Shown in pieces: positions 15,357-19,557 of a stretch of DNA of 24,000 bases (its first letter is position 1; each line of letters begins with the position of its first letter). The position numbers and the translations under genes were made by a program. Origin of the DNA: an uncultured Candidatus Micrarchaeota archaeon (GTDB lineage Archaea > Micrarchaeota > Micrarchaeia > Norongarragalinales > Norongarragalinaceae); assembly GCA_903893865.1 (NCBI GenBank), contig CAITNU010000066.1, positions 1,094 to 25,093 of the forward strand, given 5' to 3'. The notes under the pieces were generated by a model. The model was given only the letters and a program-made list of their open reading frames with translations, was not told the DNA's origin and made no database searches.

Positions 15357-16661
15357 GTGGTTTTAATGGGTTTCGTCCGCCTCGGCTGCAAGCCAAACGA
15401 AAACGACTTGGTCGCGGAATACTACTTCGAGCCGGCGCGAGGCGTTACGCCGAAATACGCTTGCGAACAACTCGCCGCGGAAAGCTCTATCGGAACGTGG
15501 ACGGCAATCGCGACTCTCAAACCGCGAACTGCAGCGCGCCTCGCACCAAAAATTTTTCACCTCAAACGGCGCGGCGCGGGCTTCGTCGCGCGCATCGCTT
15601 ACCCAGACGAGCTTTTCGAAGCGGGTAGCGCGCCGCAGTTGATGAGCGCGATAGCCGGAAACGTTTTCGGCATGCGCGTGGTCGATTCGCTTCGCCTGAA
15701 CGATTTTACTTTGACGAAAACGCTGATCAACGCCTTCAAGGGCCCGCAACTCGGCATTTCAGGAGTCCGTAAAATGCTTCGCGTTCCGCGCCGCCCATTG
15801 TGTGGCACGATAATCAAACCGAAAGTCGGCTTGAACGAGCGAGAACACGCCGGCGTTGCTTACGATTGCTGGGTTAACGGACTCGACCTCGTGAAAGACG
15901 ATGAGAATCTCACGAGCATGCGATTCAATAATTTCGAGAAACGGCTCGCAGCCACGCTTGAAGCAATGGACCGCGCACAAAGCGAAACTGGCGAACGCAA
16001 GCTGTACGTCTGCAACGTCTCTGCGGAAACGAACGAGATGCTGCGCCGCGCACAACTCGTGAAAGACAACGGCGGAAACGTGACGATGATCGATATCCTC
16101 ACGTGCGGATGGAGCGCGTTGCAAACGCTGCGCGACGCGAACCTGCGGCTCGTTATTCACGCGCACCGCGCGGGGCACGCTGCGCTCACGCGCAACCCGC
16201 GCCACGGAATCAGCATGCTCGCCATCGCAAAACTCTCTCGCCTAATCGGAGTCGACTCGCTGCACGTCGGCGCGATTTACGGGAAAATGGAAGGCAACGC
16301 AAGCGAAGTCCTCGAACTCGTAAAAGAAATTCAGAGCCCGCGAGTTGCGAAAGACGAAGCGCAAGGCGCGCTCGAGCAAAACTGGTTCGGGCTCGCGCCT
16401 GTTTTCGCCGTCGCGAGCGGCGGATTGCACCCAGGCGTGCTCCCGCAAGTCGTTGCCGCGATGGGCAACGACGTGTTTCTTCAGGCGGGAGGCGGAGTCA
16501 GTGGGCATCCGGACGGCGTCGCTGCAGGCGCGAGGGCAACCCGACAGGCCATTGATGCCGTAAGCGCTGGAGTTCCTTTGCGTGAATACGCTTTTGAGCA
16601 CGTCGAGTTAAAGCGCGCGCTGGAAAAGTGGGAAACAACCTCGCCTAAGAGCGGGAAATAA
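15357..16661 (+). CDS. rbcL: Ribulose-1,5-bisphosphate carboxylase/oxygenase large subunit, archaeal form III type
   Basis: All catalytic motifs are present: GNVFGM, GTIIKPKVGL, DLVKDDENL (the carbamylated Lys and the metal ligands), IHAHRAGHAALTR, DSLHVGA..GKMEG, VASGGLHPG and QAGGGVSGHP. No small-subunit gene is present. The length (~431-434 aa) fits form III. An alternative start is ATG 15366. Confidence 0.9.
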   Translation: MVLMGFVRLGCKPNENDLVAEYYFEPARGVTPKYACEQLAAESSIGTWTAIATLKPRTAARLAPKIFHLKRRGAGFVARIAYPDELFEAGSAPQLMSAIAGNVFGMRVVDSLRLNDFTLTKTLINAFKGPQLGISGVRKMLRVPRRPLCGTIIKPKVGLNEREHAGVAYDCWVNGLDLVKDDENLTSMRFNNFEKRLAATLEAMDRAQSETGERKLYVCNVSAETNEMLRRAQLVKDNGGNVTMIDILTCGWSALQTLRDANLRLVIHAHRAGHAALTRNPRHGISMLAIAKLSRLIGVDSLHVGAIYGKMEGNASEVLELVKEIQSPRVAKDEAQGALEQNWFGLAPVFAVASGGLHPGVLPQVVAAMGNDVFLQAGGGVSGHPDGVAAGARATRQAIDAVSAGVPLREYAFEHVELKRALEKWETTSPKSGK

Positions 16662-16666
16662 GCGAG

Positions 16667-16676
16667 TATTATATAC
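16667..16676 (+). promoter_or_regulatory. TATA-like box, about 27 nt before ATG 16699 (leaderless-type spacing)
   Basis: TATTATATAC is centred near 16672. No SD-like element lies between it and the ATG. Confidence 0.35.
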
Positions 16677-16698
16677 TAATTTGATACGAATTTAGTTT

Positions 16699-18309
16699 AT
16701 GGCCAGACTGAGATGTATTGTATTTTTTGTTGTTTTCATTTTACTATACTCTGTTAATTTTATTCGCGCTGAAAGTTTTGGTCCTCTGCATCCAACGTTT
16801 TTGAATTATTTCGGCAGCCCAATTTCAACTTACGGATCGCCTTCAAACTCGATTGATAATGCTATATTTGACCAATCGACATATTGGCGTTTTATAGGCG
16901 AAGGAAACTATGGCGCTGATTTTTCTTTGCCCATTCAACAAGGTGTTCCTAATTGTATAACTATTTATACAGTAAGTTCTGGTAATAAAGAAATTTTTTT
17001 AAAAACTAATTCTGAAAATTATGTTTTTGTTTATTCTGTTGAACCTGGTAACGGCGAGCTATTCCACTCAGGCTCACTGTGTGGCTCAAATTATCTTCAA
17101 CAAGATAATTCAATAATAGTTAGCGTTCGTTTAAATGAACGAGGCGCTACTCACTACCTTCACGACGTCGCCATTTCTTATACGGTATTCGCTCCATCTC
17201 CAAGCCCATCACCCAGTCCAAATCCAGCACCTAGCTCAAGTCCGTCATCTAATCCGTCGCCGTCTGCAGACGCTTCAACGACTCCGACTCCAATTGCGAG
17301 CGCGGCACCAACGCCGACAGTGACTGCAACGCCTACGGAAACGCCGTCTATAACGCCAACTCCGACGTCCAGTGCCACGCCGACTGCAAGTGCGAGCGCG
17401 ACAACGAGCGCAAGCGCAACGCCTTGCGCTACTCCTTCGGCAACGATTACGCCGACGACGACTGCAACGCCAACGGTTTGGGTGACGCTAACGCCTATGC
17501 CCTCACTGGCTTCGCTTACGACGTCGCCTTGCGCGACTCCGCGCGCCTCGCCTTCAGCTTTCGCTGCGTCTCGCGTCGCTGTGGACATTCGTTGCGCGAA
17601 CGAGTTTGAAATCGGAACGCAGCGCGTCGTCGTTTTCGTGGACGGTTCGCCAGCGCACGGCGTCTTGTGGCTCGACGACGGCGCGGGAAGCAGGTTCGAA
17701 CGCTTTCTGGAAACGGACGGTTCGACGCAATTCTTTTTCTCTACGCCAGGCGAGTGGACGCTCGGCTTCGCCGACGCAACGAAAAAAGTTCGCGTGAAAG
17801 AGAAAAACGTTTTCGCTGCACCAACTCTCGCGGAATTAAGCGGCTCAAAAGGAGGAGCGAACGGAGCGGGAGGCGCGGGAACGGGCGCATCAAACGCGTT
17901 GACCGGATTCTTCAACTGGGGCGTGAGTCCCGAGTGGATTGCCGTAGCGGTGCTGTTCTTAGCGCTCGCGGGCGTCGCGTACTATCGCATTTATTATTCC
18001 GCGTCAAGACTCCGCAAATCGTTCGACGGAAAAAGAGTGCGCTTGGAATTAAGCGCCGGGCGAGGCGATTTGAACGGCGTGATTTTAGTCGATTACGCGC
18101 CCGAGGAAGCGGTCGCCGCCTCGTTTTCCGAAAAACCGAGCGTTAGCGAAACTGTTACGGGAAAAGTGTTCAAGTGGCGGCGCGAAACGCTGGCCGCGGG
18201 AGAAGCGTGGGTAATCGAATACGATTTGCGCGAAGTTGACGGCGAGCGGCTGAAGAAAGCGGAAGCTTTCTGCGATTCCGGCGGCAAGCGCTTGAACCTA
18301 TTTTCTTGA
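16699..18309 (+). CDS. Large surface protein: signal peptide, AT-rich-encoded N-terminal domain, Pro/Ser/Thr linker, beta-rich domain, TM helix, ~100 aa cytoplasmic tail domain
   Basis: The signal peptide is MARLRCIVFFVVFILLYSVNFIRAES. The linker runs PSPSPSPSPNPAPSS...TPTVTATPTETPSITPTPTSS. The TM helix is WIAVAVLFLALAGVAYYRIYY, followed by SRLRKSFDGKR. I recognise no family. Confidence 0.7.
   Translation: MARLRCIVFFVVFILLYSVNFIRAESFGPLHPTFLNYFGSPISTYGSPSNSIDNAIFDQSTYWRFIGEGNYGADFSLPIQQGVPNCITIYTVSSGNKEIFLKTNSENYVFVYSVEPGNGELFHSGSLCGSNYLQQDNSIIVSVRLNERGATHYLHDVAISYTVFAPSPSPSPSPNPAPSSSPSSNPSPSADASTTPTPIASAAPTPTVTATPTETPSITPTPTSSATPTASASATTSASATPCATPSATITPTTTATPTVWVTLTPMPSLASLTTSPCATPRASPSAFAASRVAVDIRCANEFEIGTQRVVVFVDGSPAHGVLWLDDGAGSRFERFLETDGSTQFFFSTPGEWTLGFADATKKVRVKEKNVFAAPTLAELSGSKGGANGAGGAGTGASNALTGFFNWGVSPEWIAVAVLFLALAGVAYYRIYYSASRLRKSFDGKRVRLELSAGRGDLNGVILVDYAPEEAVAASFSEKPSVSETVTGKVFKWRRETLAAGEAWVIEYDLREVDGERLKKAEAFCDSGGKRLNLFS
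17191..17559 (+). repeat. Low-complexity Pro/Ser/Thr/Ala linker-coding region
   Basis: There are ~120 codons of reiterated (P/A)(S/T) units (gcaacgcc/acgccgac-type repeats). This region generates the spurious antisense ORF 17178..17915. Confidence 0.8.
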
Positions 18310-18432
18310 AAAGCGCTTTGCGCGAACCGCTGTGAGCGGGGACGGGCAGGCGTAAACTGCGAGCGCGCGGCGATCGTGCGTAGAGCGCGGGTTTTTTATT
18401 TAAGCTACGGGTAACGAGTTCAGGTGATTGAA

Positions 18433-19557
18433 TTGAACCGTTTAGCCGTCGTTTTCGCCTTCGTTGCTTTGACTATTGTTTTCGCCGGATGCGTCCAGGA
18501 AAAACAGTGGCCCGCTTCGCCAACGCCGTTCGTTGCAAGCGTTACGCCGAGCACTGCGGCTTCGCTTACGCCGACTCCGACTGCTACAAGAACGCCAACG
18601 CCTACAGCGACTGCGCAAACACCGACGCCTTCGCCGAGCCCTTCACCAGCGCCTTCGACTACCGCGCCGTCCTGCATTTTGACTGCAACCCCTAACTCGT
18701 TCGTCGGCCCAATAACTAACGTAGTTTTGGCTGCTGCATTCAAAAACCTGCCTTCGAGCGCAACTACGGCCACGCTTAAGTGCTTCAGCGGCGACGTCGG
18801 CCAAAGCGTCTCAATCGGTTCGCAAGGCGGCGCGTTCCGCTCTTGCGTTTACCCGCTCGCGCCGTTAGGCGGAACGACTTACGAAGCCAGCGCGAACGCG
18901 GGAGGCGCTTCTTGCACGGCGTCGCTCACGAACGGATACAACGCGTCGGCCGCACCGATTATTTCGAGCGTTGCGGCAACTGCGAGCACAAACAACGCGA
19001 CGATTACGTGGACCACTGATGTGGCGAGCGACGGCAAAGTAGAGTATGGCTTGAATGCGTCTTACGGTTTGAACTCGACTTTGAATTCATCGTTGTTGAC
19101 GAGTCACGTGGTTGTGTTGACGGGGCTCGCTGCTTCAACAACGTTTTACTACCGCGTTTGGAGTTGCAATTCGTTGAACGTTTGCGCCTCCGCCACGAGT
19201 TCCACCGGCGTTTTTAGTACTACTGCGCCGTCGCCGACTCCGACTTGGTCTTTTACGGCGCTGCCTTCGAGTTTTACCGCAACTTTGAATGCAGGCAATA
19301 ACTGGAATACGACGCAATCCATTACTTTCTTGAACACGGGAAACCAGGCGTTGAGCGGAATAGTTTGCTCCGTTAATGACACTTCAATTGCTTCCGCACC
19401 GTCTTGCCCGTCGACGTTGGTTGTGAACGGTTCGTTCGCCGCGGGGTTCACTATTCAAAACACTACGAGTATCAACGGCATTTACGGCTTGACGCTTACT
19501 TTCCAAGCAACGAATGCGACTGCGCAGACCTCCTCAGGCACAGTAACAATAACGTGA
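18433..19557 (+). CDS. Secreted/lipobox-type surface protein with Pro/Thr linker and fibronectin type III-like domain
   Basis: An AGGTGA SD at 18422-18427 lies 5 nt before TTG 18433, giving MNRLAVVFAFVALTIVFAGC (lipobox-like FAGC). The track uses GTG 18424, which sits inside the SD. The Fn3-like signature is APIISSVAATASTNNATITWTTDVASDGKVEYGLNASYGLNSTLNSSLLTSHVVVLTGLAASTTFYYRVWS. There are many N-x-S/T sequons. Confidence 0.7.
   Translation: MNRLAVVFAFVALTIVFAGCVQEKQWPASPTPFVASVTPSTAASLTPTPTATRTPTPTATAQTPTPSPSPSPAPSTTAPSCILTATPNSFVGPITNVVLAAAFKNLPSSATTATLKCFSGDVGQSVSIGSQGGAFRSCVYPLAPLGGTTYEASANAGGASCTASLTNGYNASAAPIISSVAATASTNNATITWTTDVASDGKVEYGLNASYGLNSTLNSSLLTSHVVVLTGLAASTTFYYRVWSCNSLNVCASATSSTGVFSTTAPSPTPTWSFTALPSSFTATLNAGNNWNTTQSITFLNTGNQALSGIVCSVNDTSIASAPSCPSTLVVNGSFAAGFTIQNTTSINGIYGLTLTFQATNATAQTSSGTVTIT
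18515..18672 (+). repeat. Low-complexity Pro/Thr/Ser linker-coding region
   Basis: It encodes ASPTPFVASVTPSTAASLTPTPTATRTPTPTATAQTPTPSPSPSPAPSTTAPS and produces the antisense artefact ORF 18420..18773. Confidence 0.8.

Follow-up and report, generated by a model that had tools for sequence, protein, structure and literature searches.

The stretch of DNA analysed here (24,000 nt in full, hereafter the window) comes from an uncultured Candidatus Micrarchaeota archaeon (assembly GCA_903893865.1, contig CAITNU010000066.1, positions 1,094 to 25,093). The assembly is a metagenome-assembled genome (MAG) that is 78% complete and comprises 1.0 Mb in 102 contigs with 53.2% GC; the window lies on contig C66. 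Between the gene for a RuBisCO and the gene for an exported surface protein, the window contains an open reading frame (ORF), 16699–18309, whose product of 536 residues has the makings of a surface receptor and whose 5' part is far richer in A+T than the rest of the gene. An earlier reading made from this sequence only (the sequence-only reading) took this break for the trace of an exposed N-terminal domain that had been acquired or swapped by recombination at a low-complexity linker. The comparisons described below support such swaps for the protein family as a whole, and for the AT-rich block of this genome they lead us to favour a long-maintained variable island over a recent import, with a probability of roughly 55%.

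The protein is predicted to be a type I single-pass surface protein, with a signal peptide, an N-terminal head, a stalk rich in Pro, Ser and Thr (P/S/T) and an immunoglobulin-like (Ig-like) domain outside the cell, a transmembrane (TM) helix, and a β-sandwich inside (Table 1). The C-terminus is placed in the cytoplasm because a cluster of Arg and Lys residues follows the TM helix (positive-inside rule). An AlphaFold2 (AF2) model based on 16 orthologous bodies, the body being the part of the protein that follows the stalk, has a predicted local distance difference test (pLDDT) score of 86 and features an Ig-like sandwich, a Gly-rich disordered tether, one long helix and a β-sandwich of about 100 residues, in agreement with the receptor-like topology (ectodomain, one TM helix, cytoplasmic β-rich tail) put forward in the sequence-only reading. 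The C-terminal β-sandwich is the best-conserved portion of the family. In Foldseek searches both sandwiches match generic β-sandwiches only, and neither a signalling or effector domain nor a known partner could be assigned to the cytoplasmic domain, which has no family-model match. Neither Pfam nor NCBIfam has a model that matches the protein, whether it is searched whole or as head and body separately, and the head had no match at E ≤ 1 in a PDB profile search.

The head was modelled by AF2 from seven orthologous sequences as a β jelly-roll with a pLDDT of 84 and a predicted template-modelling score (pTM) of 0.82. When this model was compared with the PDB by Foldseek, the matches were the carbohydrate-binding modules (CBMs) CBM22, CBM4, CBM61, CBM29 and CBM6, together with APC10 and domain III of Cry toxins, with TM-scores of 0.5–0.58 and E-values from 2.5e-5 to 3e-4. 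The head alignment (A1) contains 15 invariant columns, among them H7, P8, W39, F41, Q110 and D132. The combination of a long stalk and a CBM-like head is suggestive of binding to a glycan or to the envelope of a host, and we infer that the protein probably makes contact by binding a ligand or glycan, that a possibly glycosylated stalk keeps it at a distance from the cell, and that it is coupled to a cytoplasmic partner.

Table 1. Features of the receptor gene and its immediate flanks (positions are those of the window).
Feature	Position	Strand	Description and basis
Form III RuBisCO	15357..16661	+	Conserved left flank of the variable slot; Pfam, synteny in G003 and G004
AT-rich spacer	16662..16698	+	37 nt; TATA-like TATTATATA at ~16667-16675, ~25-30 nt 5' of the ATG; read from sequence
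Signal peptide	16699..16770	+	24 aa; basic N-terminus, hydrophobic core, cleavage-like site ...IRA|ES (translation); equivalent leaders in orthologs
Head, type A	16771..17193	+	141-aa β jelly-roll, galactose-binding-domain-like / CBM-like predicted fold; GC3 0.26; AF2 and Foldseek
P/S/T/A-rich stalk	17194..17580	+	~129 aa; compositional switch inside, ~17240-17300; translation, codon table, change-point
Ig-like β-sandwich	17581..17799	+	Membrane-proximal, first conserved domain of the body; AF2 of 16 orthologs, pLDDT >90; alignment A2
Gly/Ala-rich tether	17845..17919	+	Predicted disordered; AF2 pLDDT <50, model residues 95-119
TM helix	17929..18000	+	Single helix, then R/K-rich stretch; AF2 helix, model residues 123-146; sequence
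C-terminal β-sandwich	18007..18303	+	~100 aa, predicted cytoplasmic; AF2 pLDDT 87-98; invariant columns in A2
Surface protein	18424..19557	+	377 aa, exported; FN3 / purple-acid-phosphatase-N-like domain and P/T linker; Pfam; syntenic in 8/8 relatives examined

The GC content of positions 16699–17190 is 35.8%, or 35.0% when counted from 16662, as against 58.7% for the remainder of the ORF (17191–18309) and 54.9% for the whole window. In sliding windows of 200 nt the value stays at 0.335–0.385 over 16600–17199 and lies at 0.58–0.645 on either side. The GC content of third codon positions (GC3) rises from 0.256 over codons 1–164 through 0.50 (linker) to 0.635 (body), with 0.60–0.72 in the neighbouring genes. 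Since the GC3 follows the overall contrast at silent sites, the contrast is not one of amino-acid composition alone; the Ig-like domain has a GC3 of 0.6–0.78, although it is extracellular like the head. Hand counts of three 60-nt lines in the sequence-only reading (22/60, 10/60 and 33/60 GC) proved exact, and the division into an AT-rich 5' part and a GC-rich body that they were taken to show is borne out by both sliding-window GC and codon usage.

The AT-rich block is about 600 nt long. On its left it begins directly 3' of the RuBisCO stop codon at 16661 and so includes the 37-nt spacer, which with its TATA-like TATTATATA is a probable archaeal promoter for a leaderless or short-leader mRNA. 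Its right edge had been placed at the start of the linker, at about 17191. The switch does fall within the linker, yet the change-point in GC3 lies farther in, at codon ~199 (nt ~17296), inside the stalk, and the transition is gradual: around codon 182, CCG replaces CCA as the usual Pro codon, and ACG becomes dominant among Thr codons from codon ~200. The AT-rich part thus takes in the first 35 or so codons of the linker, with the transition spread over about 100 nt.

Compared with the genome as a whole, the block is extreme. The slot between the RuBisCO stop and the stalk has a GC content of 0.35 vs 0.53 for the genome, and the head a GC3 of 0.26 vs a median of 0.64. The lowest 500-nt window at the locus (GC 0.34) is among the lowest 16 of 38,362, which makes this the third-lowest spot in the 1.0-Mb assembly, where about 39 patches fall below 40% GC in 400-nt windows. 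Among 351 ORFs of at least 300 residues, the GC3 change-point of this gene is the strongest found within a gene (z = -8.1; 0.26 on the left, 0.62 on the right). The next strongest (|z| 5.6–7.9) are located in giant ORFs for surface proteins of 1404–3601 residues (C86:1731-8411, C60:25917-36719, C91:1-4212 and C95:2410-8124), and compositional mosaicism at the level of modules is a trait of the large surface proteins of this organism. Other low-GC3 stretches of the genome likewise fall in surface proteins and in ORFs of no known family (ORFans). A general AT-richness of secreted proteins was considered as a cause and ruled out, the GC3 of ORFs with signal-peptide-like N-termini being 0.606 vs 0.615 for the rest, as far as a crude heuristic for signal peptides allows. 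The two spots of lowest GC in the assembly, C34:~500-1200 (a membrane ORF of 187 residues, GC3 0.26) and C38:8850-10900 (ORFs of 234 and 453 residues, GC3 0.29–0.35), are possibly foreign or mobile DNA.

A homology search with the whole protein is dominated by matches to the low-complexity linker and yields one true homolog, P0002, the ortholog in a species of the same genus (G004); the body alone again finds P0002, and the head alone finds nothing. In the genomes sampled across the phylum, matches to the body are present in 52 of 301, in frames of ~280 to 1036 residues, and 32 of 61 relatives have the body, each in a single copy. It represents a class-wide family of single-copy membrane proteins that has not been described so far. 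The closer relatives share the gene order RuBisCO, variable slot, receptor, FN3-like surface protein and DUF655. Within the genus the body is 57–65% identical vs 85–89% for DUF655. The receptor and the FN3-like protein encoded downstream may work together. The other neighbours recognised in the window by Pfam are a TctA-like permease and an SLT-like protein, besides DUF655. With the name under which NCBI lists P0002 ('Candidatus Norongarragalinales archaeon'), this neighbourhood points to Micrarchaeota of the order Norongarragalinales. One ortholog of about 270 residues (L015, G042:C3:45874-49545) has neither head nor stalk and passes from the signal peptide directly to the Ig-like domain, TM helix and cytoplasmic domain, which indicates that the body can exist alone.

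In contrast to the common body, the N-terminal heads are unrelated between lineages, and at least nine types are distributed over the body tree, in addition to the headless ortholog. Three species of the same genus as the window (G002, G003 and G004) carry a Cys/Trp-rich head, type B, on an orthologous and syntenic body, so that a different head occupies the same site, and these type-B orthologs and the window protein become homologous again within the P/S/T stalk or beyond it. Judged from these alignments, replacement of the module with the stalk as the junction zone is real for the family; the domain shuffling at the linker that had been suspected from the window is thereby upheld at the family level, with syntenic orthologs that have a common body and unrelated heads.

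The head of the window protein, type A, is restricted to family f1, to which the window itself belongs, and there it occurs in seven of 26 genomes from four genera, always in a single copy and always on this protein; beyond this genus it is carried by orthologs in genera g3, g4 and g7. The search of 275 other genomes of the class did not find it, nor did that of four congeners with assemblies 68–82% complete. A HMMER pass over 1.84 billion representative proteins returned only eight matches to the head. Six of these were retrieved, and the head is N-terminal in all six; five are full-length and share the same TM-plus-cytoplasmic end, and the sixth is a fragment of 137 residues. Relatives of the head were not found in the viral contigs of IMG/VR, nor were relatives of head or body found in JGI metagenome contigs with single-protein queries. 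The search of this genome for further copies of the AT-rich module, which the sequence-only reading had proposed, was negative by tblastn and by blastn with a word size of 7. The head-stalk-body architecture was independently assembled in G007, G015, G006, G010, G024 and G025.

The question of whether this particular head is ancestral or imported was addressed by comparing the two halves of the protein. The identities of head and body to the window protein are 44.8 and 43.0% in G007, 35.6 and 38.6% in G015, and 35.4 and 33.5% in G006. In this test of phylogenetic incongruence the head is no closer to any foreign lineage, and its divergence from each A-type ortholog compared equals that of the body. 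On the body tree the genus forms a clade with support of 100/100, and its sister is the A-headed G007 (81/87). Monophyly of the three B-headed species costs 2.1 log-likelihood units and is not rejected by the approximately unbiased test (p-AU 0.37), so a single change from A to B suffices; type A requires three to five changes on the same tree. The evidence, which consists of sequence comparisons and trees, points to replacement in G002, G003 and G004 and not in this genome, whose head looks like the ancestral, vertically inherited type and not a recent import. Nor are there signatures of mobility at the site: no tRNA is present in the window, no repeats flank 16662–17300, no ORF in the slot resembles an integrase, and repeat scans found no exact DNA repeats, tandem ones included, in the stalk. 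Site-specific insertion was ruled out on the absence of a tRNA, of flanking repeats and of exact tandem repeats in the stalk.

The low GC3 is shared as well. Change-points in or beside the stalk, at differing positions, are found in G002, G004, G007, G015 and G006, which include types A and B, with GC3 of 0.28–0.39 on the left and 0.53–0.73 on the right. In G013, which has a type C head, the values are 0.40 and 0.63, and the change-point lies inside the head region, about 70 codons before its end. The heads of G007, G015 and G006, only 30–45% identical in amino-acid sequence, have GC3 values of 0.25–0.32, and types B and C are low too, as a transient signal of import would not be. These orthologs have diverged by 55–70% at the protein level, and the A-type heads by about 55–65% (their closest pair, L011 and L012, is 65% identical); at such a distance, with silent sites saturated, the signal of a one-off import should have been lost by amelioration, which argues that the low GC3 is maintained. 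In genus g7 there is no AT-rich slot, and the GC3 of the homologous A heads is 0.66–0.75; the AT-rich codons are thus not demanded by the protein sequence of the head. As far as these sequences go, AT-richness is a property of the slot from RuBisCO to stalk in one clade of genera and is tied to no head type. It had been held in the sequence-only reading that orthologs of the same composition would speak for an ancient and not a swapped module; such orthologs are found in sister genera whatever the head type, and with the same head in three other genera, co-diverging with its body, the explanation of the AT-richness by an acquired or swapped head in this genome is not supported and, by the yardstick of that reading, largely refuted.

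In the relatives with such a GC3 break, the gene 5' of the receptor is AT-rich as well and varies between species, and this genome has none. In G004 it codes for a DUF2298-like membrane protein of 617 residues with multiple TM segments directly 5' of the receptor (L001:2090-3943), and similar genes are found in G015 (L046), G006 (L047) and G013 (L048); the Pfam match to DUF2298 is weak, with an E-value of 1e-5 that is below the cut-off. A gene of this kind is absent between 16661 and 16699 and from the whole of the 78%-complete assembly. DUF2298 is similar to glycosyltransferases of the GT-C type, and the protein might glycosylate the P/S/T stalk. In G002 (L049:107-1267) and G003 (L051:777-1928, minus strand) the slot is occupied by an AT-rich ORF of 384–387 residues with no family match, which represents a third state of the slot within one genus. 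The assemblies of three relatives break at the receptor gene, in the stalk in G003 (C27/C40), in the body in G001 (C139) and about 100 nt upstream in G007 (C8). Strain heterogeneity or low-complexity sequence would produce such breaks.

Taken together, these observations are best accommodated, at the odds given at the outset, if the AT-rich block has long been maintained as a variable island that ends on the right inside the stalk, one in which the resident head is ancestral and the diverged alleles escape the recombination that raises GC elsewhere. The gene would then have two evolutionary halves, a GC-normal body (Ig-like domain, TM helix and cytoplasmic domain) and a variable AT-rich slot that would run from the RuBisCO stop through promoter, signal peptide and head and take in the first third of the stalk at its right-hand end. 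The contents of the slot would be replaced over long times, with breakpoints scattered in the low-complexity stalk. Slot alleles would become too diverged to recombine with those of relatives and would thereby miss GC-biased gene conversion or selection, and the slot may also be replenished from an AT-rich flexible gene pool. Its silent sites would drift toward an AT-biased mutational equilibrium, and the recombining body would be kept at the GC typical of the genome. In bacteria, GC3 is higher in recombining genes, an effect that does not depend on codon selection (Lassalle et al. 2015, PMC4450053), and single-cell genomics of another DPANN symbiont, from the Nanoarchaeota, found that surface proteins diversify fastest (PMC6142677).

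Several points weigh against this interpretation. Its cause for the AT bias is an inferred one. GC-biased gene conversion has been argued for bacteria, and we know of no demonstration of it in DPANN archaea. Head and body co-diverge equally, so that the head is not visibly faster-evolving in A-headed lineages, which weakens the argument that the slot is AT-rich because it is hypervariable. Conservation and GC3 are related only by a weak trend among the genes of the window (rho 0.58, p 0.10, n = 9). The branching order inside the genus lacks resolution on the body tree, and this lineage could possibly have re-acquired the A head from an unsampled congener. In the closest relative, G001, whose DUF655 is 97% identical, the assembly is broken inside the gene, and its 5' part with the head was not found.

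A close rival, doubtful as it is, holds that heads and upstream gene are redrawn repeatedly and like for like from an AT-rich mobile or pan-genome pool of co-occurring Micrarchaeota, so that the slot is always "young". Recurrent import from such a flexible pool would account for the AT-richness of the whole slot in several genera, unrelated upstream genes included, and for the scatter of head types over the body tree; the breaks in or beside the gene in G001, G003 and G007 are what is expected where strains differ, and the other low-GC3 patches of the genome do lie in surface proteins and ORFans. What independent moves would not be expected to give is a head-to-body identity ratio of about 1 in every A-type comparison with this genome, and no donor pool came to light in viral contigs, metagenome contigs or the 1.84 billion representative proteins. 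The same co-divergence bears on the simpler proposal that recombination at the linker recently brought in head and promoter from a donor rich in A+T and that they have yet to ameliorate. A sharp and extreme GC3 step, a head that was looked for in vain in the genus's other four species and has no paralogue in the genome, and a slot whose content varies within a genus of unresolved branching are all as such an acquisition would have them. We consider it distinctly unlikely nonetheless, because orthologs in three sister genera carry a type A head that has diverged to the same extent as their body, because orthologous heads are equally low in GC3 at distances over which a transient signal should have faded, because the switch is graded over some 100 nt and not abrupt, and because neither a tRNA, an integrase or a flanking direct repeat nor a relative in viral or JGI metagenome contigs was found.

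The remaining alternatives do without import. Selection on the message, by which AT-rich rare codons would slow translation or reduce mRNA structure and so aid Sec-dependent export and folding of the ectodomain, would be in keeping with a block that starts at the 5' end, spans the exported distal domain and is retained in several orthologs. The block is about 600 nt long, and known 5' ramp effects are far shorter; in relatives it reaches into a separate upstream gene. As silent sites are GC-normal in the extracellular Ig-like domain and GC-rich in the heads of g7, and proteins with signal-peptide-like N-termini do not differ overall in GC3, this explanation appears improbable. Least probable by far is an artefact or hypermutation, that is, a chimera of assembly or binning or the target of a diversity-generating retroelement (DGR). 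The source is indeed a MAG of 102 contigs and 78% completeness, yet the reading frame is continuous and six other genomes have the same architecture with co-diverging halves. A DGR was rejected on the grounds that the assembly contains no match to a reverse transcriptase (RVT_1) at its given completeness, with positive controls working, and that blastn (word size 7) showed no further stretch similar to the DNA of the head that might be a template repeat; moreover, the head is N-terminal and does not have a C-type lectin fold.

Should the AT bias stem from the slot being shut out of recombination or gene conversion, the locus would offer tests of GC-biased gene conversion in archaea a natural control inside a single gene. 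It also calls for caution in genome scans, where a step in GC within a gene is usually taken for recent transfer; the step described here is conserved across genera, and composition alone would misdate it. Attachment to host cells is the way of life of Micrarchaeota and other DPANN archaea, and their contact molecules are largely uncharacterised. A conserved membrane and cytoplasmic half with an exchangeable head provides a concrete candidate for recognition of a host or substrate. A more speculative extension, which we put forward tentatively and consider rather unlikely in its entirety, is that the RuBisCO-to-stalk slot is a long-lived, recombination-cold locus of host recognition, in which the interchangeable heads (jelly-roll, Cys/Trp-rich and at least seven others) determine the host cell or glycan to which the episymbiont attaches and their alternative alleles are kept across speciation by balancing or frequency-dependent selection, with the AT-richness as its footprint and the stalk as a built-in joint for recombination.

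Among known systems, the predicted fold of the head is that of CBM4, CBM22, CBM29, CBM61 and CBM6, as well as of APC10/Doc1 and domain III of Cry toxins, namely a jelly-roll like that of galactose-binding domains, and many CBMs are likewise terminal modules on a low-complexity linker. Unlike CBMs, the head has no relationship at the level of sequence (no Pfam, NCBIfam or PDB profile match) and no catalytic partner domain, and the protein that carries it is anchored in the membrane and has a cytoplasmic domain. The targets of DGRs in DPANN and in bacteria of the candidate phyla radiation (CPR) resemble this protein in presenting a variable ligand-binding domain, here a predicted one, on the surface of a DPANN cell; in them the variable part is a C-terminal C-type lectin, whereas here it is an N-terminal jelly-roll, and no reverse transcriptase or template repeat was found. 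In Nanoarchaeota, hypothetical surface proteins have the highest densities of non-synonymous single-nucleotide polymorphisms (SNPs; PMC6142677). These, like the protein described here, are uncharacterised exported proteins of small-genome DPANN archaea that evolve faster than their housekeeping neighbours, but they belong to a different phylum and protein family, and the present case is one of whole-module replacement with a break at silent sites and not of SNP density.

The nearest parallel is that of metagenomic islands. These are flexible, AT-rich islands of prokaryotic pangenomes that contain genes for surface structures and differ between close strains. The slot resembles them in being AT-rich relative to the core, in encoding exposed parts of the cell surface, in having a content that differs between congeners within conserved flanks, and in the tendency of assemblies to break there. 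It differs in its size of only about 600 nt in this genome, with no gene of its own and no mobility genes, tRNA or repeats, and in a resident head that co-diverges vertically with the body. It differs above all in that one of its edges falls inside the coding sequence of the stalk, which makes the gene itself a mosaic. With an island edge maintained within a coding stalk, the locus is an unusual form of the familiar AT-rich flexible island.

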